Origin: a virus
Lineage: Duplodnaviria; Caudoviricetes
Strand: one strand, 5' to 3'
DNA length: 37,547 bases
Virus record (IMG/VR): IMGVR_UViG_3300018080_000343
Location: 1 to 37,547 of that record
Shown in pieces: positions 8,730 through 37,495 of the stretch. The stretch's first letter is position 1. Every line of letters starts with the position of its first letter. The notes under the pieces were generated by a model. That model made no database searches, was not told the origin of the DNA, and saw only the letters and a list, made by a program, of their open reading frames with translations. Position numbers and translations under genes: made by a program.

Positions 8730-8914
8730 TTTTTGATTCGATCACGCATGTATCGCAACAAGCCGATCAAATTCTGACGAAACCGCTGTCTTCCTTCACG
8801 CTTTGAATCTGCTTCGGGGAAATGTGCAATGTCGTTGTTCAAACAATCCCACGCATTTTGATTTTCGACGAGAAAATCAAAGTCAATATCAATCAGGTGT
8901 TTATCGTACAGCAT
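8726..8914 (-). CDS. hypothetical protein
   Basis: 62-aa ORF overlapping both neighbours in the operon. Confidence 0.5.
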   Translation of the reverse strand: MLYDKHLIDIDFDFLVENQNAWDCLNNDIAHFPEADSKREGRQRFRQNLIGLLRYMRDRIKK

Positions 8915-10223
8915 CTTCCAGCTCCCTCATTTTTTCGACGGCCATTGTCTTGCGTTTCCACAGGTGCGACTTGCGGCACCAGTCGCTTAGCGTCTGAGGT
9001 TTCGCGATGCAAACACAGAGTTGTTTGGCCCGACTGATTCCCGTGAGAACCCAGTGCCGATCGCATAGCCACTTAGCCCCGCTGCTTTCATCGCCGACGA
9101 CGAAAACAACCGGAAATTCTGCCCCTTGCGATTTATGGCAACTTATCGCATACGCCAATTCCCACTTGCCGGTGTCATCATCACCGCTGCTTCGCGGCTT
9201 ACTCACTCGCACAAGTCGATCTGGCGTATCAAGCTGGCAGATCGTGTTGCCGCCGTCAACTTCAATCACACGGGCCTGCTCGCCGTTGGCGACGTACACC
9301 CGCCGCTGATCATTCATCTCTTCACTGGGACAGCCAGGGGCAGCGAGATACCAGCCGTTTTTGCCGCACACGATTTTGTCGCCTTCGCGGTACGGGTTAC
9401 CCTTCGCCTGCTTGCCGGTTGGATTGAGATAGCCTTGCAGCATCGGGTTGAGTTTCTTCCGGCTGACTTCTGATTTTTCGTTGAGGGGCACAATCACCTG
9501 AGCATGCCAGATGGGGTCAACAACATCCTGCGACCAGTCCCATGCCGCTGACGTTGGATCGAGCCAATCGCGTAGCGCCTGCGTCTGTTCTGCCGGATTC
9601 TTCCACTCGCGATCAACGTGCAGATTCTCGCCTGCCGCCAGGTCGATTTCTGGCGAGTGTTGCCACTTACCTTCTTCCGCTATCAGCTTGCAGGTCTTCA
9701 CAATCCGGCCGGCGTTGCGGTGGATTTCCGTGAGGTGTCCACGCGGAACTCCCAACGCAATCATATCGCGGAATGGGGCACCGTGACCGACTGGCGGTAG
9801 CTGGTTCGGGTCGCCGATAAACAGGACATGGCCACCTTTCCGCCGTGCTGCCAGGAGGGAAGCCATCAGCGACGAGTCAATCATGCTCGCCTCGTCCACG
9901 AAGACAAACTGATGAGGTAGCGGGTTGCTCCGGTTATAACCGAAGTATCCGGCACCCTCCAGGTACGTGTAGGCGAGCAGCCGGTGTATCGTGGTGCAGT
10001 CTAGCCTGATGCCTTGCTCGCCGAGTGCTTCGGTCATTCTCCTGGCAGCCTTACCAGTCGGTGCCGCCCCCGCCATTCCGCTGCTGCCGTTGCGTTGGCG
10101 TAGCTGGCGGATCAGGTGCCCAAGGCAAGTAGTCTTGCCGCTGCCGGGTCCGCCGGTGAGTAGCCCCACCGTGCCGATGGTTGCGGAGTTGAGGGCGTCG
10201 AGTTGGTGGGCGGTTAGTTGCAT
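8901..10223 (-). CDS. recD2: RecD2-like SF1B helicase, C-terminal (motor) half
   Basis: Q motif LTAHQ, GGPGSGKTT, AAPTGKAARRM, TIHRLL, VDEASM, GDPNQLPPVG, LTEIHR, AYAISCHKSQGAEF, TGISRAK. Confidence 0.9.
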   Translation of the reverse strand: MQLTAHQLDALNSATIGTVGLLTGGPGSGKTTCLGHLIRQLRQRNGSSGMAGAAPTGKAARRMTEALGEQGIRLDCTTIHRLLAYTYLEGAGYFGYNRSNPLPHQFVFVDEASMIDSSLMASLLAARRKGGHVLFIGDPNQLPPVGHGAPFRDMIALGVPRGHLTEIHRNAGRIVKTCKLIAEEGKWQHSPEIDLAAGENLHVDREWKNPAEQTQALRDWLDPTSAAWDWSQDVVDPIWHAQVIVPLNEKSEVSRKKLNPMLQGYLNPTGKQAKGNPYREGDKIVCGKNGWYLAAPGCPSEEMNDQRRVYVANGEQARVIEVDGGNTICQLDTPDRLVRVSKPRSSGDDDTGKWELAYAISCHKSQGAEFPVVFVVGDESSGAKWLCDRHWVLTGISRAKQLCVCIAKPQTLSDWCRKSHLWKRKTMAVEKMRELEDAVR

Positions 10224-11206
10224 CCAAATATGTCCCCAATATCATTCGTTCGCTGCAACCCGGCGACACGTTCGGCGACAGCGTAGCACTCAACACCTCA
10301 CAATCCCAAACCAATCATTCGTTCGCTGCAACCGGCAGGTCCTCTGGTACGCGACCTGCCAGGGCGATCTCACAATCCCAAACCAATCATTCGTTCGCTG
10401 CAACACCGATGAGCCAATGGCCGATGAAGAAACGCTCCTCCTCACAATCCCAAACCAATCATTCGTTCGCTGCAACTAAATCGGCGGCTGTTCCACTGAC
10501 TGTCGACCATCAGACTCACAATCCCAAACCAATCATTCGTTCGCTGCAACGCAGACGCGAAGCCGAACGCGAGCCGGAGTTCCACGCTCACAATCCCAAA
10601 CCAATCATTCGTTCGCTGCAACTTCCCCGATGGCAACCATCAATACTACCGCCAATCCAACTCACAATCCCAAACCAATCATTCGTTCGCTGCAACTACG
10701 CGACGCGTGGGGGCGTCTGGCGGACATACCCCCTCACAATCCCAAACCAATCATTCGTTCGCTGCAACCGAGTCATCGTTCGGGGTTCGATCACCCAAGC
10801 GAGCCTCACAATCCCAAACCAATCATTCGTTCGCTGCAACTTGCGGCCTGCGATAAGGGCTCCATCCTTTAGCCGGCACCTCACAATCCCAAACCAATCA
10901 TTCGTTCGCTGCAACCATCACAAAGGTTACTACATCAGCGTACTGCGGAACTCACAATCCCAAACCAATCATTCGTTCGCTGCAACGCGAAGGAAAGCGG
11001 CTTGCAGCGATACATGCCCGCCTCACAATCCCAAACCAATCATTCGTTCGCTGCAACAAGCCACGTCCGCGCGGCGGCGGCGTCCGCCAGTCCCCCTCAC
11101 AATCCCAAACCAATCATTCGTTCGCTGCAACCTCCCTAAACGTAGCCGGAACCTCTCCGGAACCTGGCCGCTCACAATCCCAAACCAATCATTCGTTCGC
11201 TGCAAC
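10224..11206 (-). CRISPR. CRISPR array: 13 identical 36-nt repeats plus one degenerate trailer repeat, 13 spacers of 35-39 nt
   Basis: Plus-strand repeat CTCACAATCCCAAACCAATCATTCGTTCGCTGCAAC starts at 10297, 10369, 10441, 10515, 10587, 10661, 10733, 10805, 10880, 10951, 11022, 11096 and 11171; partial copy at 10241-10259. Transcribed sense inferred as GTTGCAGCGAACGAATGATTGGTTTGGGATTGTGAG because the degenerate copy is distal to the effector gene. Confidence 0.98.
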
Positions 11207-11488
11207 TCCGTCGCCATAAGTCCTTTCGCCACAACGGGCCAAAGACATACTTGCGAGAGCCCCCTGCCGATTGGCACCTCTTCCAACCTTCCTTGCAAGT
11301 CCCAGCTTCGGAAACTCTTGCTCAGAAGGAAGTTCTGACACGCGAGCGGTTCCCGGCCTCACAAATCTACGGCACTGCTCGCAAATCGGTAACTGATCAG
11401 ATTTCACCATTTGCAAAAATCTTTTGCGCGACAGTCGCACCGACTTGCCACACACTTCGCATGGCAACTCACGACGAATCTTCGCCAT
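11189..11488 (-). CDS. small Zn-ribbon protein (CEVC...CEQC) overlapping the CRISPR leader
   Basis: ATG 11488 (MAKIRRELPCEVCGK) with GGGAG upstream, overlapping the effector stop; the frame stays open through the leader and stops inside the first repeat. Confidence 0.5.
   Translation of the reverse strand: MAKIRRELPCEVCGKSVRLSRKRFLQMVKSDQLPICEQCRRFVRPGTARVSELPSEQEFPKLGLARKVGRGANRQGALASMSLARCGERTYGDGVAANE
11207..11330 (-). promoter_or_regulatory. putative CRISPR leader
   Basis: Lies between the effector gene and the first perfect repeat, at the opposite end from the degenerate repeat; boundaries approximate. Confidence 0.5.
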
Positions 11489-12614
11489 TGTCAATATCTC
11501 CCAGTCGCAATTTGCGAACCTTGACTTCGATTCCACGACGCGCTGCCGCATTTTTCAAATCGTCCAGCCATCGCGTCCAGTTCCAAGTCAAGCCGTTTGC
11601 CTCGAACCAGCATTTTTCTTTGGTTGGATTGGTGGGTTCCAGGTACTCCAATACGCCACAGCGATGCCGCTCGCATTGCTTAACCACATCTACGATTGCC
11701 CGCCGTCGCACCTCGGTCACAATGTCGGCAAGTTGAAGATTGCGCTTCGATACCGCGATATCTATTTTCTTTCGTCCGTGCCCCGCCCCCATTCGCTGCC
11801 GATATCTCCAGCCAATCTGTTTTCGCACGCCGACTAAGCGAAGTGTCTGCGAAATCAGGTACCGTCCTGCACCAATTCCCCAGGCACGACTACGCCCCGG
11901 AATCTCTAGCGAAAACGGTCGCTCGATTTCTCCTTTGCCGATCACCGGTGACAATGTAGCTATTCGATCAGTATCAAGTTGTTCCGTTTCAAACGCGACA
12001 GGAATATACCAGTACCATTTCCCGCGACGCTCAAGCAATTTCGAGTCGGCTAGTTTGCGTTCACCTCTTGCCAAGTCATGGATAATCCGCTTAATGCCAG
12101 TCGGCACGCCCTTGAGTGAGATTGTAAAGTCCAGCGAAATCTGCAAACTATTTCGCATGATGTTGCGAACATGGACTTGCACATCGTCCTCAAAGACAAT
12201 CGTGGTATGTTTATTTGCGATAGGCACTGACAAATCCGTGTAAAATGCCGGCCGTTCCTCACGCCGCAGAATCGCATCTTTTCGTTTCGGTCTTTTGCCG
12301 TTATCCGCTACACCCTTTCGCCAATCTACCTTAGCAGCCAGGAAAGAATTGACCTGTTGGGCAATGTTGCTTGCAACATCGGTGCCAAGTCGCGGTACAG
12401 ACGTTGTAATTGCATGGTAAAGTTTTGTTGATTCCGACAAGGGCTTGCCTTGTCGGTTTAATTTCGCTTGTTTGGCTGATTCCTTCCGGCCGCGAGCCCG
12501 CAATAGCCAGTCTTCGCTGGCTACATTGCGGGCCTCGCGACACAGACGAGCAACTTCTGTCAGCTCTGCCGGCGGATCAGTCAACTTCAATTTCAAAACT
12601 GTTATTGACTTCAT
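11469..12614 (-). CDS. Cas12f/TnpB-like type V effector, predicted nuclease-dead and C-terminally truncated
   Basis: KWYWYIPVAFE (WED strand), LDTDRIATLSPVIG where RuvC-I (LDPDxxxGVDLG) is expected, GHGRKK, IVDVVKQCERHRCGVLEYLE (RuvC-II region), W...LKNAAARRGIEVKV; ends without the Zn finger or the RuvC-III D; adjacent to the array. Confidence 0.85.
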   Translation of the reverse strand: MKSITVLKLKLTDPPAELTEVARLCREARNVASEDWLLRARGRKESAKQAKLNRQGKPLSESTKLYHAITTSVPRLGTDVASNIAQQVNSFLAAKVDWRKGVADNGKRPKRKDAILRREERPAFYTDLSVPIANKHTTIVFEDDVQVHVRNIMRNSLQISLDFTISLKGVPTGIKRIIHDLARGERKLADSKLLERRGKWYWYIPVAFETEQLDTDRIATLSPVIGKGEIERPFSLEIPGRSRAWGIGAGRYLISQTLRLVGVRKQIGWRYRQRMGAGHGRKKIDIAVSKRNLQLADIVTEVRRRAIVDVVKQCERHRCGVLEYLEPTNPTKEKCWFEANGLTWNWTRWLDDLKNAAARRGIEVKVRKLRLGDIDNGEDSS

Positions 12615-13117
12615 ACCGGCATCAATTTCCCTCTCCGTTCAAGCTCGACGATTCGTCCCTCCAAAATTCCCCGCTGTCGCTCGCTCTCGTCAAGACGTTC
12701 GCGAAACATCGCAGCTTGCTCGCGATACTCTTTCACGTTCGCTTCAGCTTGATCCAGTTTCAACTGGAGTTCTTTGGCCAGAGCCTTCCAATTTGTCTTC
12801 TGGATTTCACCCGCTTCTTTCGTTGGCGTTGCCAGATCGATCATGGCCCATACGTTGTATTGATATTCAGCCCATGTCGATTTTTTCGGATTGGCTCGAT
12901 AGGCTCGAACCAGTTCTGATACCGATGGCGAACCGCCAAAATGCGCGAATTCCTCTTCCTGCAAATGATCCATCAATTGTCCTTCTCCTCCGAACTGGTC
13001 GACATACTCTTTGTCGGCCAGCAGTTCGTCAACCAGTTGCAGCATGCGAAAGATATTCTCTCGCGATTGTTTGGCGAGCTTCTTTAATTCTGCTCGCTTC
13101 TGTCCACTCGTACTCAT
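12611..13117 (-). CDS. unknown helical/coiled-coil protein, translationally coupled to the Cas12f-like gene
   Basis: 168 aa; ATGA overlap at 12611-12614; heptad-rich C-terminal third (WKALAKELQLKLDQAEANV...LEGRIVELE); AAGGA RBS. Confidence 0.8.
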   Translation of the reverse strand: MSTSGQKRAELKKLAKQSRENIFRMLQLVDELLADKEYVDQFGGEGQLMDHLQEEEFAHFGGSPSVSELVRAYRANPKKSTWAEYQYNVWAMIDLATPTKEAGEIQKTNWKALAKELQLKLDQAEANVKEYREQAAMFRERLDESERQRGILEGRIVELERRGKLMPV

Positions 13118-13157: not shown

Positions 13158-13321
13158 ATCAATCAGACACAGCCGCTCGGTTTGGGATTTCCGCGTCCTG
13201 ACGTAATCCACATCGCGGATTTACGGAATTTGGCGAGAGGTCCGGCTGTCACATTAAGACCTCCGGCTGCTCGCCATTCGGGCTGTGAGCACCCGTTTGA
13301 CTACGGCTGTGCCTGATTGAT
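13158..13321 (-). ncRNA. putative tracrRNA/scaffold RNA
   Basis: 18-bp closing inverted repeat (13158-13175 and 13304-13321; the only mismatch is G-U on the minus strand), internal hairpins, 13-nt anti-repeat at 13177-13189 and a loop CUCACA (13284-13289) complementary to the repeat 3' end UGUGAG. Confidence 0.75.
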
Positions 13322-14283
13322 TGCTCCCACTTCGCCTCTCCCGCCAAACCAAAATCATCATCCAGTTCGTGCCAAGCGACATGAAGATCGGACACCCACG
13401 AAGATTCAGCGTCAGCTTTCGCTGACTCGGCGTACCATCGTCGCCCATCGCCATCCACCCGCTCGCGGATCATGTCCCGCTCGATTGCATCGGCTATCGC
13501 TTCTCGCACCTGGACAGTAGCTCCCGCGATCTTCGCGTCTAGCTCTTTGCGAATCACGCTTTCGAGAAGCCACGTGCTACCAGAAGAATCGGATTCAAGA
13601 GCGTACAGGGCACAATGCGTCTGCCGGATCAACGCGCCCATCGGCAAGCCAAGTGACTCGTATAGCCGATCACAGAGCAAAAACCCACAGCCGGCAAACC
13701 CGCGAAGCACATACGGATTGTCGCGGATCACCTGCACTGCACTTTCGCCCCACGCCTCGATGCATTTCTGCGAGGTTGACTTTGGAAAACCGCGATTTGC
13801 CAGAAGCCCCTCAACCTCAATCGTGATTGCTTCCAGTGCTTTTCTGGCAGAGAAAAACGACGATGCAGCCTCAACCGTCGTGACATTGAGGCTGCATCGC
13901 TTGGCCACGCTGGCCGGCTCAAGTCGCAATTTCTCTAGTGCCAGCTCTCCAAATTCTGCGACGATCTTGATTGCTGCTTGCGGACCGATGCCGTTTGCCT
14001 TTTGTAAATATCGCTGGATGGCTTGCAGGTCGGTCGGCTCAACCGGAGTAAACGAAGAAAATTGAAACTGCCGACCGAACCTATCGTGTGTTTGCACCCG
14101 CCCCAGAAACCGATACTTCTCACCCATGCACAGCGAGCCGGCCTTGGCATTTCCTACTACCGTTTGCCCGTCTCGCATTTTGCCAACCACCCAGCGATCA
14201 GCCGAATCGTCTTCGCCGATCGCCCGGTGTTCGTGGGAGAAGATCCCGATTAGTTCTTCGGTTTTTGGGGTTACGACTGGCAC
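13249..14283 (-). CDS. recD2: RecD2-like helicase, N-terminal half (OB-like plus HhH domains)
   Basis: HDRFGRQFQFSSF...IQRYL...GIGPQAAIKIVAEFG, VIRDNPYVL..FAGCGFLLCDRL, SGSTWL motifs of the RecD2/YrrC N-terminus; no P-loop; the last about 25 codons read into the RNA element. Confidence 0.85.
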   Translation of the reverse strand: MPVVTPKTEELIGIFSHEHRAIGEDDSADRWVVGKMRDGQTVVGNAKAGSLCMGEKYRFLGRVQTHDRFGRQFQFSSFTPVEPTDLQAIQRYLQKANGIGPQAAIKIVAEFGELALEKLRLEPASVAKRCSLNVTTVEAASSFFSARKALEAITIEVEGLLANRGFPKSTSQKCIEAWGESAVQVIRDNPYVLRGFAGCGFLLCDRLYESLGLPMGALIRQTHCALYALESDSSGSTWLLESVIRKELDAKIAGATVQVREAIADAIERDMIRERVDGDGRRWYAESAKADAESSWVSDLHVAWHELDDDFGLAGEAKWEQSIRHSRSQTGAHSPNGEQPEVLM

Positions 14284-33333: not shown

Positions 33334-35496
33334 TTACCATCGGCCTCTTGTGAATTGTCCGGTTGTCGGCACCGCTGCAACTGGGGCAGGCGTCGATCTT
33401 CGCGCCTTGGCGGTCGGTGCCACCTTTTCTATCGTGCGGGTGATCGGCTCCAGACGCTCAATACCTCGCATAATGCGGCCAAGGATCGTCAACGCCGTGC
33501 TGTCCAAATAGTGATTCTGTTTTCGCACCTTCCACCAGCCGAGCCGGTTTTTCTTCCAGCCTTTTTCGAAGCGTTCCTCCCAGATTTCCGCCGTCACCTG
33601 AAACGCAAAGGTCTTGTGCGGCAATCGCGTGTCCGTCTCGAACACCCGAAGCGAGCCAGTGTAGCCCGTTTCTGTGAGAAACCCTGAATGCACTTGCAGC
33701 TTAAATGTGTCAGGGTCAAAAAGAATTACGCCTTCCTTACTGGCGTGCCATCCAGGTCCACCAATGTCCGCCCATTGCGGCCGGCGGTATGGGCTCCAAC
33801 CTTTCGTTGGAATAAATCGGAGCGTACCGACTTCCCGGCAGAACTTCCGCACGGGCTGCTCTTTCCAAGGCTCCTCTTTCCACCCCTCGTCGATCGCGAT
33901 CAAATCGACGTGATAGGGCAGTTTGTCGATCACCTCTGTTTTCCAATCGTGCAAAGCGTTGTAGATGCACAGATCCATTGTTTCGATAGGCAAGCCGGCA
34001 GAATGGAAATCGAAAAAATCGTAGTCCACGATCGAGCCGGCAGCCTCCGAGTTCCACGCGGTAGTGGTGTACTCCAGACCGGCCTTGCGAATGTCGACGC
34101 CGCAGACGATTCCCGTCGCGTCGTCTGGGATCTCCTGGCGTTTCAGCCCGGACCCACACTGATACATGATATGATCTGGCGTCAAAATCAACGGCTGCTC
34201 GGCATCTGCCGGCGGGTCGTTTTGGTGTTCCGTAAGAAACGAATCCATGCCGTTGTCGGCGATGTAGTCGTAGCATTTCTGCAGCGCCGATAAGTGCTCT
34301 GGCTGCTTGTCGTCGAGTAAATCGGTGTTGTAGTCGTGCCCCGAAGACATCTCGCAGCCAGCGTGCATTTTGTCGAATCGTTCCCGCAGAAAATCACGGG
34401 CTTCGCGGGCGTGCTTGTCATGCGGCTGTCGGTTGCGGCGTAGCTCAATATATGTCTCCCACAAATCGAGCCGATCGGGCCATTTGATGATTCGCGGGAC
34501 TCGCTGACCGTCCCAGGATGGCTTCTCGTCCCGGTCGGTGTACTGATAGGCCGCTGAACGCCGGCTAGTGATCGTACAGATAAACACCTTGCCAAGCCGC
34601 TTGTTCGGTCCGCCCAGCCCCGCGACAGTCTTGTCAATGCAATCCTCGATCTTTCCGGCTATTAGCCCTTGTTCGGCTGCGAGGCTGTCTCGGCTGTCCA
34701 GGTCGTCGAGCATAACGAAGTCCGGCCGGCGGTCGTAGATATTGAGCCCCTGAAGCGAATCAGACGAGAACCCCAAGCACATCAACACCGGCCCCAACTC
34801 GGTTTCGTTTTTGGGCAATCCGTACTTGACGGTCGCGTACTTCCCCCGCCCGTCCGGCAGACTGGGCAGCACGACGTGTTGCGGTCCCCACTCGACCCGG
34901 ACGGGCAACCCGCCCCATGTCACGCTGCGAGCCCTCGACGGTGCCGGCGCGATGTAGCGGCAGATCGATGTCTCAAACGGAAAATCCTCGTGCAGCTTTT
35001 TGTTGGTGATAGTCCGCAGCTTTGCCTTAATGTCACGCAAGATCTGTTCGCCCTTGGTTGTCGTGGCTGCGAGAATCAGCGGAAACTTCAGTTGCCGATA
35101 GAGAGCGTACTTGAGTTGGAGGTACTTGAGGATGGTAGACTTCCCGCTGCCTCGCGGCATCGCCATTGCCTTCGATGTGCCGTATCGAATCGCCCGGCCG
35201 CAGTCCTCGATGAATTGCTTTTGAGCGCTGGTGAATGGAGCATAGAACACATCGGGGAAATACGTGCGCAGGAACTTTTGGTCGTCCTTCTCGCAAGCTC
35301 GACGGCGTCGCGGATTCTGAACGATGCGGGCGGGAATGTCGCGACCCGACGACCGCATCTCCCGCTTGCGAATCGCGTCGGCTGCCCGCACTTTGTCGGC
35401 CTGCTCCGCTGGCATCCCCTTGAGCGCAGCCTTCAGTTTTCGCCGTTGCTCCTGCAACTTGCGGTCTGCGGCTCGTAGTTCTTCGATGGTTGGCAT
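33334..35496 (-). CDS. terL: terminase large subunit (GpA-type)
   Basis: Walker A AMPRGSGKST, Walker B VMLDD, FLTEHQNDP, nuclease CGVD, IAIDEG, NHYLDS; start moved to ATG 35496 (TAATG coupling). Confidence 0.9.
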   Translation of the reverse strand: MPTIEELRAADRKLQEQRRKLKAALKGMPAEQADKVRAADAIRKREMRSSGRDIPARIVQNPRRRRACEKDDQKFLRTYFPDVFYAPFTSAQKQFIEDCGRAIRYGTSKAMAMPRGSGKSTILKYLQLKYALYRQLKFPLILAATTTKGEQILRDIKAKLRTITNKKLHEDFPFETSICRYIAPAPSRARSVTWGGLPVRVEWGPQHVVLPSLPDGRGKYATVKYGLPKNETELGPVLMCLGFSSDSLQGLNIYDRRPDFVMLDDLDSRDSLAAEQGLIAGKIEDCIDKTVAGLGGPNKRLGKVFICTITSRRSAAYQYTDRDEKPSWDGQRVPRIIKWPDRLDLWETYIELRRNRQPHDKHAREARDFLRERFDKMHAGCEMSSGHDYNTDLLDDKQPEHLSALQKCYDYIADNGMDSFLTEHQNDPPADAEQPLILTPDHIMYQCGSGLKRQEIPDDATGIVCGVDIRKAGLEYTTTAWNSEAAGSIVDYDFFDFHSAGLPIETMDLCIYNALHDWKTEVIDKLPYHVDLIAIDEGWKEEPWKEQPVRKFCREVGTLRFIPTKGWSPYRRPQWADIGGPGWHASKEGVILFDPDTFKLQVHSGFLTETGYTGSLRVFETDTRLPHKTFAFQVTAEIWEERFEKGWKKNRLGWWKVRKQNHYLDSTALTILGRIMRGIERLEPITRTIEKVAPTAKARRSTPAPVAAVPTTGQFTRGRW

Positions 35497-36305
35497 TAGT
35501 GATGTTGCTGCACTCGCAACGGGTTGTGATACCCCGCAGGCAGATACCGCTGCAAGTCCTTTTTGATGTAGTGTCGGACGCCAAGCTGTTGACACAGCTC
35601 GACGATTTCATGCGTGTAGCTTTCCCAATCAGTGGATTGTGTCATCGGCAAGTAGTTCGCCCGTCCGATTTTGTAAAGATCGACGAACCGAAATGTCCGC
35701 TGGATGATTTCGAGACTGCTATCTGTGTCTAGTGTTGGCTCAAGTGACACCCAGGTGAAAATGCCCGCCTGGTGAAATGCCCGTAGCGTACTGATGCGAT
35801 CACTTGGCAATGCGGCGTTGGGTTCCCATCGGTTACTGAATTCGACATCAAGGCTAGTCAGCGTCGAGGCGAACGCGTCACGACCAGGACGGAATAGGTC
35901 GATATCCCGCAGCGCCCGCGAGCCGCCCTTGGTCAGCGTGCAGACCGCAAGCCCGTGCCCCTGCAAAATGCGGATTGTTTCCGATGTCAATGCGGTGTCG
36001 CCCGGATGATAGGGGTCGGTCGTGAAGCTGAGCATTACTTGCTCGGTGATCCCAGCCACCCGATACTTCGCCGCATCCTTCTTTAGCTTCGCCAGAAATC
36101 CCGGCCGCTCTATGGCTCCAGCGTCGAATTCCGACCGCGACATGCGGAGCACTTTCGGAACATAGCAGTACTTGCAGCCGTGTCCGCAGCCCCGATATGG
36201 ATTCGTCGCCAGCGGTGCATACTCGCCAGCTTGACCACGTGGGGCGTAGATCATCGAACAGTTCTTGACGGATACGCCGTCCGGGTTCAGAATGACGTTA
36301 GACAT
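35496..36305 (-). CDS. radical SAM protein (SplB/Rv2578c-like)
   Basis: NPYRGCGHGCKYCY (CxxxCxxC), LSFTTDPY, LTKG, WEPNA, TWVSLEP. Confidence 0.9.
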   Translation of the reverse strand: MSNVILNPDGVSVKNCSMIYAPRGQAGEYAPLATNPYRGCGHGCKYCYVPKVLRMSRSEFDAGAIERPGFLAKLKKDAAKYRVAGITEQVMLSFTTDPYHPGDTALTSETIRILQGHGLAVCTLTKGGSRALRDIDLFRPGRDAFASTLTSLDVEFSNRWEPNAALPSDRISTLRAFHQAGIFTWVSLEPTLDTDSSLEIIQRTFRFVDLYKIGRANYLPMTQSTDWESYTHEIVELCQQLGVRHYIKKDLQRYLPAGYHNPLRVQQHH

Positions 36306-36945
36306 GCTCGGTTACTCCTGATAACTGAGGGTGTTCAGACTCGGCCGGGGTACCATCCCGGCCGCTGTCGTTTAGGGGCTCCAGCCGGATGCCGAAATAT
36401 CTGGCGTTCCCGTCTGAAACCACCTCGACAGCTTCCTTTATTGTAGCATATTCAGACGCCACCCACAATAACCAATCCGTAGCTTGCCGCGTGATTCCTG
36501 CCAAAACAGTCTTGGGGGCAAGCCTGAGGATTGAATCGTGGATACCGACAGCCCGCATTGCTACCCTGTCGAATTGCTGGAATCCCGCCGATATGACCCA
36601 TGACGACGTAAGAAATACCGTTGTGGGCCGTGATAAATTGGGGATCATTGCCTCCCAGTGCTTCCAAGGACTGCCGTAGGTATCCACGTCCACCACGTTC
36701 TGCGGCCAGCCGGGCTGCTGAAGAATCCGCACCGAATCCAACTTGAGCCGGCCTTTCTTCGGTTTCAGGTCCACCCCCCAATACGAGTTGACCGCGAATT
36801 CTTCCCGCAGTCGCTTCCAGATCAACCCACCGCCCTGGCAACAATCCAGCACGTCAGGCGGCTGCTCGGCGTGATACTTCCGCAGGAAATACCGCCGCAA
36901 GTCTAGCTTCGCCTTCAAGTCGTGGTTGTCGGTTTTCTTAGCCAT
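36298..36945 (-). CDS. SAM-dependent methyltransferase-like protein
   Basis: VLDCCQGGG (motif I), YWGVD, VVDVDTYGSPW (DPYG-like); start moved to ATG 36945. Confidence 0.65.
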   Translation of the reverse strand: MAKKTDNHDLKAKLDLRRYFLRKYHAEQPPDVLDCCQGGGLIWKRLREEFAVNSYWGVDLKPKKGRLKLDSVRILQQPGWPQNVVDVDTYGSPWKHWEAMIPNLSRPTTVFLTSSWVISAGFQQFDRVAMRAVGIHDSILRLAPKTVLAGITRQATDWLLWVASEYATIKEAVEVVSDGNARYFGIRLEPLNDSGRDGTPAESEHPQLSGVTEHV

Positions 36946-37495
36946 CGTTGCTTGTCGTTTCCACGATGCTTTCCTCAATCCCAGCGATCATTTCGACCAC
37001 TTCAGCCACTTCGCCCCATCGAACAGTGGGAAGCCCGATAAGCGCCCATGTCATTGCCGGTGGTGGTTTGGTAGACAATTGCCGAAGTTCGGTTTCCTTC
37101 TCCTCTTCAGCACCGCCTAGCAGCGTTTCTAGCCAGTCGTCGCTGTCGATTTCCGCAAGCAACTCCGACAGCTTCGCGTCATCTGTTTCCGCCATCTCCG
37201 CCAGCGGATCGAGCGCCGCTAAAAGTTTGTTGGCCTCGTCCTCGGTCACGTCGAGTACCAGACACGGCCATTTCGTCGAGCCATCCAGGTCCGCCCGCAG
37301 ATGCCCGTCTATGATCTCCAGCGTGCCGTCTGGTAGCTCACGGGTGAGAATCGCATCGGCAATGCCAACCTCCGCCAGGACGCCCCGCAGGGCATTCTGT
37401 TGTGCCTCTGGGTGGACCCGCCAGTTGCGCGGATTTGGCCGCAACTCGCTGGCCTTTACCCGTCGCAGACTTTTGATTCGGTCTCGTAGTTTCAT
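36938..37495 (-). CDS. ParB/sulfiredoxin N-terminal domain protein
   Basis: ELRPNPRNWRVHP...IIDGHLR signature. Confidence 0.88.
   Translation of the reverse strand: MKLRDRIKSLRRVKASELRPNPRNWRVHPEAQQNALRGVLAEVGIADAILTRELPDGTLEIIDGHLRADLDGSTKWPCLVLDVTEDEANKLLAALDPLAEMAETDDAKLSELLAEIDSDDWLETLLGGAEEEKETELRQLSTKPPPAMTWALIGLPTVRWGEVAEVVEMIAGIEESIVETTSNDG

Follow-up and report, generated by a model that had tools for sequence, protein, structure and literature searches.

A very likely tracrRNA bracketed by a long-range closing stem in a phage cassette encoding a predicted nuclease-dead Cas12f

A 164-nt RNA encoded on the minus strand of a tailed-phage genome very likely serves as tracrRNA for a Cas12f that is predicted to be nuclease-dead, because two of its segments pair, and covary across loci, with the 3' half of the repeat in the CRISPR array of the same cassette. 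According to the fuller reading, which is judged reasonably probable, the long stem that closes this RNA marks it for excision from the mRNA of the operon.

The DNA considered here (the window) is a stretch of 37,547 nucleotides corresponding to IMG/VR virus record IMGVR_UViG_3300018080_000343, in which terminase, portal, capsid and tape measure genes identify a tailed phage. The cassette runs along one strand in the order RNA, ORF168, effector, Cys4 ORF and array (Table 1), an order that is conserved across phages, and its location differs between phages. In the window, RecD2 is split in two genes, with the entire cassette lying between the halves; in the phage carrying locus L004, RecD2 is fused in a 777-codon frame (L058). 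That the cassette broke an intact recD2 was considered and is unsupported, the nearest four full-coverage homologues (56-79%) also being of the C-terminal half only, and a search for a relative with an empty cassette site found none. Neither the effector nor the RNA motif of the sister clade described below was found in GTDB genomes. Among five phage records, one of them complete, Cas1 was not detected; the same five records yielded no Sigma70_r2 domain (the control was detected in 10 of 14) and no TniQ, for which the control was likewise undetected everywhere. A Pfam scan of 36 window proteins gave no transposase hit. Elsewhere in the window, upstream of the terminase gene (35496-37495, minus strand), a radical SAM gene lies beside a possible methyltransferase-like ORF and a ParB-like ORF, the last two labels being an impression only, with no Pfam hit.

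Table 1. Positions of the RNA, the cassette genes and related features in the window
Feature	Position	Strand	Remarks
tracrRNA (scaffold RNA), including closing stem	13158..13321	-	164 nt
Closing (head-to-toe) stem, 5' arm	13303..13321	-	19 nt; imperfect extension to 13327
Hairpin 1	13279..13295	-	loop 13285-13289 is the short anti-repeat; forms a pseudoknot with the final 5 nt of the repeat
Stem 2	13231..13276	-	13276-13270 / 13237-13231; inner helices 13266-13263 / 13245-13242 and 13260-13258 / 13250-13248
Stem 3	13190..13219	-	base 13219-13214 / 13195-13190; apex variable
Long anti-repeat	13177..13189	-	13 bp with repeat positions 19-31, one G-U
Closing stem, 3' arm	13158..13176	-	immediately follows the anti-repeat
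RecD2, N-terminal half	13249..14283	-	frame extends 72 nt into the RNA, through the 5' arm
Accessory ORF168	12611..13117	-	168 aa; helical domain and C-terminal coiled coil; stop overlaps effector start
Cas12f-fold effector	11469..12614	-	381 aa; predicted nuclease-dead, C-terminally truncated
Cys4 ORF	11189..11488	-	99 aa; two CxxC motifs; overlaps effector stop; ends inside first repeat
CRISPR array	10224..11206	-	13 identical 36-nt repeats, 13 spacers of 35-39 nt; last repeat is the 5' 19 nt only
Spacer 5	10841..10879	-	30/39 nt match to the window terminase gene, 33775-33813
RecD2, C-terminal helicase half	8901..10223	-	start codon abuts last repeat

An earlier reading made from the sequence only had proposed a structured RNA on the minus strand at 13158-13321. 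Indeed, this strand folds at -80.2 kcal/mol (z -9.14), an energy equalled by none of 200 shuffles, as compared to the weaker z of -5.24 for the plus strand. The loop CUCACA (13289-13284) and the 13-nt anti-repeat (13189-13177) were found where they had been placed and are mostly unpaired in the ensemble, with the anti-repeat being the sole minus-strand site of the window that offers at least 12 contiguous pairs with the repeat and at most one G-U. The duplex between the loop and the repeat end had been given as 6 nt; the pairing holds and covaries, yet the duplex is best taken as 5 bp, because repeat position 31 sits in the long duplex. As for the remaining stems, UGGCGAG/CUCGCCA had been drawn correctly. 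GAGGUC/GACCUC had not, being absent from the minimum free energy structure and not conserved, with CCGG/CCGG together with GUC/GAC representing the supported register. UUCCG/CGGAA does appear in the single-sequence minimum free energy structure, whereas homologues back UCCGCG/CGCGGA at 13219-13214 / 13195-13190 instead. The RNA is without an Rfam match up to an E value of 5.

The scans returned 26 loci, of which 21 are distinct. Thirteen distinct loci with at least 900 nt upstream of the effector were examined for the RNA, and a single copy was present in each of 11; of the other two, L024 ends in repeats and L025 is without the RNA. Across these 11 loci, 92.9% of 269 cells in the inner helices are paired, as compared to 26-45% in slid registers and with 0 of 500 shuffles reaching this level, and 16 of 25 pairs show two-sided changes, scored on an RNAalifold structure derived from the same alignment. 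Pairing with the repeat was considered using the 18 nt counted from the start of the 3' closing arm in the nine RNA-containing loci that hold repeats. In all nine, the locus's own repeat gives the top-ranked duplex (mean of -24.4 kcal/mol, as opposed to -12.5 kcal/mol for non-cognate combinations); only 1 of 362,880 label permutations reaches the cognate score, a figure that overstates significance given that the loci are related. Upon adding three loci of the sister clade, each of the 12 long anti-repeats has its most favorable partner in the repeat of its own locus, and the hairpin loop, which occurs in four sequence forms, pairs at all five positions with the last five bases of the repeat in the same number of loci. 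Covariation with the repeats of homologous loci, a check set beforehand, was thus observed in every cognate pair, lending strong support to the proposal of a scaffold RNA with one short and one long repeat-pairing segment. The core covariance model scores the sister RNAs weakly (E 0.001-0.24); the case for their homology is therefore built on their position, on hairpin 1 and stem 2, and on pairing with the repeat. Plain cofolding of the RNA with the repeat gave no intermolecular pairs, as the method forbids crossing pairs and both duplexes cross the closing stem.

The half of the repeat that lies outside these duplexes changes more freely. Within arrays, repeat positions 1-18 drift at 0.19 per site (92 copies), as compared to 0.02-0.08 at positions 22-24, with positions 25-36, used for selection, left out of this count. 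In L014, the repeats keep only some 15 nt of the 3' end, the unpaired part having been lost. The spacers of that array (L014:7210-7470) are short and irregular, and the repeat end and RNA loop have changed together.

The 381-aa effector gave no significant match in Pfam, NCBIfam or PHROGs. Still, a profile of 52 effector homologues matches solved Cas12f chains (best E 7e-9), the modeled structure (pLDDT 94) aligns with AsCas12f (8j12; Foldseek E 4.2e-19, TM 0.68) and PADLOC assigns the protein as Cas12f (E 8e-10). A complete RuvC D-E-D triad was not found. The RuvC-I strand reads IATLSP where OsCas12f has GVDMG, such that the RuvC-I Asp is missing, nor is this Asp conserved among 173 homologues (63 core and 110 sister proteins, the latter set leaving out proteins of fewer than 360 aa). 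The chain stops ahead of RuvC-III, which is absent, and a CxxC motif occurs in no effector tail, whether core (0/63) or sister (0/110), meaning that there is no in-chain zinc finger. The conserved Glu E326 (145/173), near RuvC-II, is ambiguous and might be the RuvC-II residue. Because the RuvC-I Asp, RuvC-III and the zinc finger are missing, the effector is predicted to be nuclease-dead, a point missing from the sequence-only reading.

Two accessory ORFs accompany the effector. Homologues of ORF168 were found in 14 of 21 distinct loci, with six of the seven misses having at most 331 nt upstream; only L025 is truly without ORF168 across 1.1 kb of upstream sequence. In this locus (L025:1020-1110), the effector is preceded by a promoter-like region of its own and by an inverted repeat, with neither ORF168 nor the RNA within 1.1 kb. 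In L003 (3893-4480), an unrelated 195-aa gene sits between the RNA and ORF168. An independent scan of IMG/VR with ORF168 returned the same five contigs as did the effector scan. The ORF168 fold had no Foldseek match at E 0.001, comparison in VIA matched only the coiled coil (Z of 6.4 at most) and the ESM Atlas offered only weak leads (DUF3102, TM 0.44). The Cys4 ORF is present in 16 of 21 distinct loci, with all five misses ending inside the effector, and was open in each of 19 loci inspected; it mostly sits just ahead of the first repeat, in the leader position. Searches assigned the Cys4 ORF to no named family; its product could be a detached zinc finger or an array factor.

The RNA is less new than was claimed, because its two-duplex design is standard for Cas12f1 and because SpCas12f1 offers a precedent for the head-to-toe stem. 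Such a layout has been described for Cas12b, f1, g and l, with Cas12f1 combining a long repeat:anti-repeat duplex with a 5-7 bp pseudoknot duplex, whereas Cas12k employs a triple helix (PMC11246509). As such, the likeness to Cas12f drawn in the sequence-only reading stands for the two duplexes, while that to Cas12k does not. The Cas12f1 tracrRNAs are 153-169 nt long (PMC8548392), and those of AsCas12f1, SpCas12f1 and OsCas12f share the two-duplex design, together with the protein fold of their effectors. By contrast, the phage effector is without the RuvC-I Asp, RuvC-III and zinc finger, the phage RNA lies upstream of the operon rather than between cas12f1 and the array, the long duplex is only 11-16 bp, and the cassette includes two fixed accessory ORFs and is phage-borne. 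Judged by sequence, the RNA displays the features of a Cas12f1-type tracrRNA, namely a long anti-repeat and a pseudoknot duplex, and the effector falls outside V-F1 on the basis of the triad and zinc finger.

Among other systems, dCas12f-sigmaE presents the same RuvC-dead, C-terminally truncated Cas12f fold (PMC13472631), and the effector can be related to dCas12f 9n9c (profile E 2e-6, TM 0.59). The published example, from a Chitinophagaceae genome, targets an efflux promoter (PMC13472631). Unlike that system, the phage cassette has no adjacent ECF sigma gene, its neighbors being ORF168 and the Cys4 ORF, and it relies on a separate tracrRNA and array rather than on a fused guide. Cas12m (V-M), which blocks phages and plasmids by binding without cutting (PMC11013384), is alike in the mode proposed here; still, PMC11246509 does not count V-M as a subtype that depends on a tracrRNA, whereas the phage cassette has a tracrRNA, and the effector resembles Cas12m structures (TM 0.35-0.46) less well than it does Cas12f. 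Cas12k of V-K CAST also combines a dead RuvC with a tracrRNA but is larger and replaces the short duplex by the triple helix (PMC11246509). The effector family may overlap V-U24 (found with an HTH protein), V-U43 or V-U44, listed as having altered catalytic sites (PMC10691335), or the cluster of CRISPR-associated dCas12f proteins beside arrays mentioned in PMC13472631. The cassette is not described in the passages of PMC12669027 consulted. Nor, in the literature considered, partly in excerpt and with the 2022 Cell survey of CRISPR systems encoded by viruses outside its scope, was a description found of this cassette or of a Cas12 tracrRNA closed by a processing-type stem. A phage dead-Cas12f cassette with two fixed accessory genes was likewise not found in that literature.

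The closing stem of the window RNA comprises 19 contiguous pairs (17 Watson-Crick and two G-U; 13303-13321 / 13158-13176), extendable to 13327/13152, with pair probabilities of 0.75-1.0 in 400- and 700-nt mRNA context. This confirms the fully paired 18-bp stem originally described and adds one inner U-G pair. The plus strand of the window contains a chance run of 21 pairs when G-U is allowed; because a 19-pair run of this type is not extreme alone, the weight given to the stem comes from its conservation. The stem is found in 11 of 11 RNAs (-47.5 to -61.4 kcal/mol), with a sequence that is unrelated between loci. The longest perfect runs between cognate arms are 12-30 bp (mean 21.5), as compared to a mean of 8.7 and a maximum of 15 for 110 non-cognate arm pairs. 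Nine of the 11 loci present 16-30 contiguous pairs, i.e., about two turns of double-stranded RNA, as expected of an RNase III stem; the stems of L005 and L012 are bulged, with longest runs of 14 and 12, respectively, and energies similar to the others. In a fixed 24-bp register, the nine unbroken stems contain 193 Watson-Crick, 16 G-U and one A-C pair, together with six other combinations.

It was also considered that the arms are inverted repeats acting at the level of DNA, as element ends or a protein operator, or that the repeat match reflects chance. The arms do form an inverted repeat, and the cassette occupies differing phage locations. However, the excess of G-U (16) over A-C (1) on the sense strand, together with the unrelated arm sequences, indicates selection on the sense RNA and not on DNA. 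Moreover, the arms bracket only the RNA rather than the cassette, and cognate pairing in 12 of 12 loci argues against a chance match. This alternative is, therefore, largely refuted already and deemed highly improbable.

In every locus, the anti-repeat and the 3' arm that follows are separated by only 0-2 nt. In the sister clade (three distinct loci on five contigs), the cassette and both duplexes are kept, and the closing stem is missing; directly after the anti-repeat, all three loci instead carry a local hairpin of 13-15 bp that is followed by a T run. The position after the anti-repeat, therefore, always carries a helix able to define a 3' end. As the local terminator hairpin replaces the stem at the same position, the closing stem likely sets the ends of the RNA.

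How the ends are made was approached by comparing three processes that can coexist, with excision ranked first, termination second and a retained clamp third. Release by an RNase III-type enzyme, as put forward in the sequence-only reading, is thus plausible and is the reading preferred here. RNase III processing stems typically comprise about two turns of regular double-stranded RNA bracketing the product. Endonucleolytic excision is marginally favored because the duplex is long and regular, because four of the 11 loci have a same-strand gene ending -24 to +72 nt from the 5' arm, and because, as claimed from sequence, nothing promoter-like was found ahead of the RNA in the window. Several observations count against excision. 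Here, a cut in the 5' arm, which translating ribosomes would moreover melt, would strip the stop codon from the N-terminal RecD gene. Promoter-like sites, found at most 250 nt upstream of the RNA in five of the 11 homologues, make release of the 5' end less necessary there. Finally, the SpCas12f1 head-to-toe stem is kept in the pulled-down RNA region and is dispensable (PMC12255294, PMC8548392).

Termination was considered in that the stem and a following U run could comprise a long-range intrinsic terminator or attenuator, with the tracrRNA scaffold as its loop, such that partial termination would yield excess tracrRNA and read-through would yield proteins and pre-crRNA. In the 8 nt after the stem, 6-8 T are found in 4 of 11 loci, which fits termination and counts against excision, and 5 T in four more (background for at least six T, 0.7-7%). 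The classical hairpin and T run of all three sister loci are likewise consistent with termination; in one of these, L039, an extended -10 site lies where the RNA starts. Yet, the T run is absent in L003, L012 and L017 and weak in the window, 16-30 perfect pairs exceed what termination generally needs, and the 5' end would stay unfreed where a gene abuts. Termination as the sole explanation is, therefore, considered unlikely.

In the third process, the stem would be retained as a structural clamp, stacked on the repeat:anti-repeat helix and blocking exonucleases, with ends generated by trimming and without an RNase III cut. Such a clamp is suggested by the spacing of the 3' arm relative to the anti-repeat in all loci, the sister loci also placing a helix there, and has a precedent in the SpCas12f1 head-to-toe stem, in which the 5' terminus likewise pairs at the stem-5 (anti-repeat) end (PMC12255294). 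That stem is predicted, unresolved in cryo-EM and dispensable (PMC12255294; also PMC11641405). In addition, TldR guides are thought to mature via protection from host nucleases (bioRxiv 2023.11.30.569447). Still, a perfect duplex of 20-30 bp is a typical RNase III substrate that would be hard to keep uncut, and near-perfect pairing extends well past what stacking requires. A clamp alone is thus regarded as quite unlikely. The precedent involves one RNA, the stem length of which is outside the comparison, whereas the phage stem reaches 16-30 contiguous pairs in nine of the 11 loci, is free in sequence and is exchanged for a local terminator hairpin in the sister clade.

If the favored excision reading is followed, a single read-through transcript would carry the RNA, all of the ORFs and the array. 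Host RNase III, or another nuclease with similar specificity for double strands, would cut the closing stem, and the leftover stub would stack on the repeat:anti-repeat helix, as does the SpCas12f1 head-to-toe stem. In silico, a 12-13 bp duplex forms at repeat positions ~20-31 and a 5-bp loop duplex at positions 32-36; host nucleases would trim the unpaired 5' half of each repeat. The effector, probably as a dimer, would then bind the DNA of related phages without cutting, blocking transcription or replication as does Cas12m. By analogy, such an anti-phage roadblock is, if only narrowly, the role best expected of the system.

To address possible targets, 137 distinct spacers from 19 loci were searched against 0.71 Mb of DNA, a search in which shuffles give 0-1 matches per run at E 0.002. 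Four spacer matches reach this value, one corresponding to array overlap and one to an A-rich leader stretch. As for the others, the match of spacer 5 to the terminase gene retains the same residue in 11 of 13 codons, including 10 consecutive identical residues, and a spacer of L002 matches the end of the gene preceding its portal gene at 22 of 23 nt, with the 5' 11 nt of the spacer differing. Two of 137 spacers thus resemble, with differences, packaging-module genes of the carrying phage. Both appear to derive from related phages rather than to reflect self-targeting, two cases being thin support. The other 135 had no credible match, and neither an exact target nor a PAM was found among the sequences searched. 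No spacer target was found in the phage collection. The core of spacer 5 was found only in its own array, and a translated-spacer search returned only noise.

The arrays themselves vary. Spacers are of a fixed 30 nt in L005 (5294-5923) and L038 (2268-2631), as opposed to 35-39 nt in the window, a difference that suggests different host Cas1-Cas2 machines acting in trans. Arrays of L007, L016 and L039 contain drifting repeats, deleted 5' halves and irregular spacers, with more than 40 repeats being spread before, between and after genes in L039. In both L004 (5440-5456) and L039 (4312-4340), a partial repeat lies directly after the 3' helix of the RNA and before ORF168, an arrangement that resembles a step towards a fused guide. 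L003 has two arrays with diverged repeats, only one of which pairs well with the RNA, and the sister-clade cassette is identical in three contigs (L035-L037), where the array has one duplicated spacer.

A broader proposal, put forward tentatively and considered doubtful as a whole, is that the cassette represents a novel type V subtype, built on three proteins and dispersed among phages, in which the dead Cas12f, the coiled-coil ORF168 and the free Cys4 protein would make RNA-guided binding an active attack on competing phages. The tracrRNA would lie inside its own end-defining helix, a single structure that frees the RNA while also metering how far the genes that follow are expressed, with the terminator of the sister clade being ancestral and the clamp having arisen by one arm moving to the 5' end.

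These findings offer a complete and testable parts list for a large clade of predicted nuclease-dead Cas12f proteins (63 core and 110 sister proteins aligned) that was missed by Pfam, NCBIfam and PHROGs, and the minimal guide of a programmable DNA binder of 381 aa can be read from the pairing map. To our knowledge, tracrRNA excision from operon mRNA is poorly mapped for Cas12f; the swap between local terminator and long-range closing stem provides a natural experiment on this step. Finally, the two accessory genes may reveal a further use of dead Cas12 proteins, beyond transposition, sigma factor recruitment and roadblocking.
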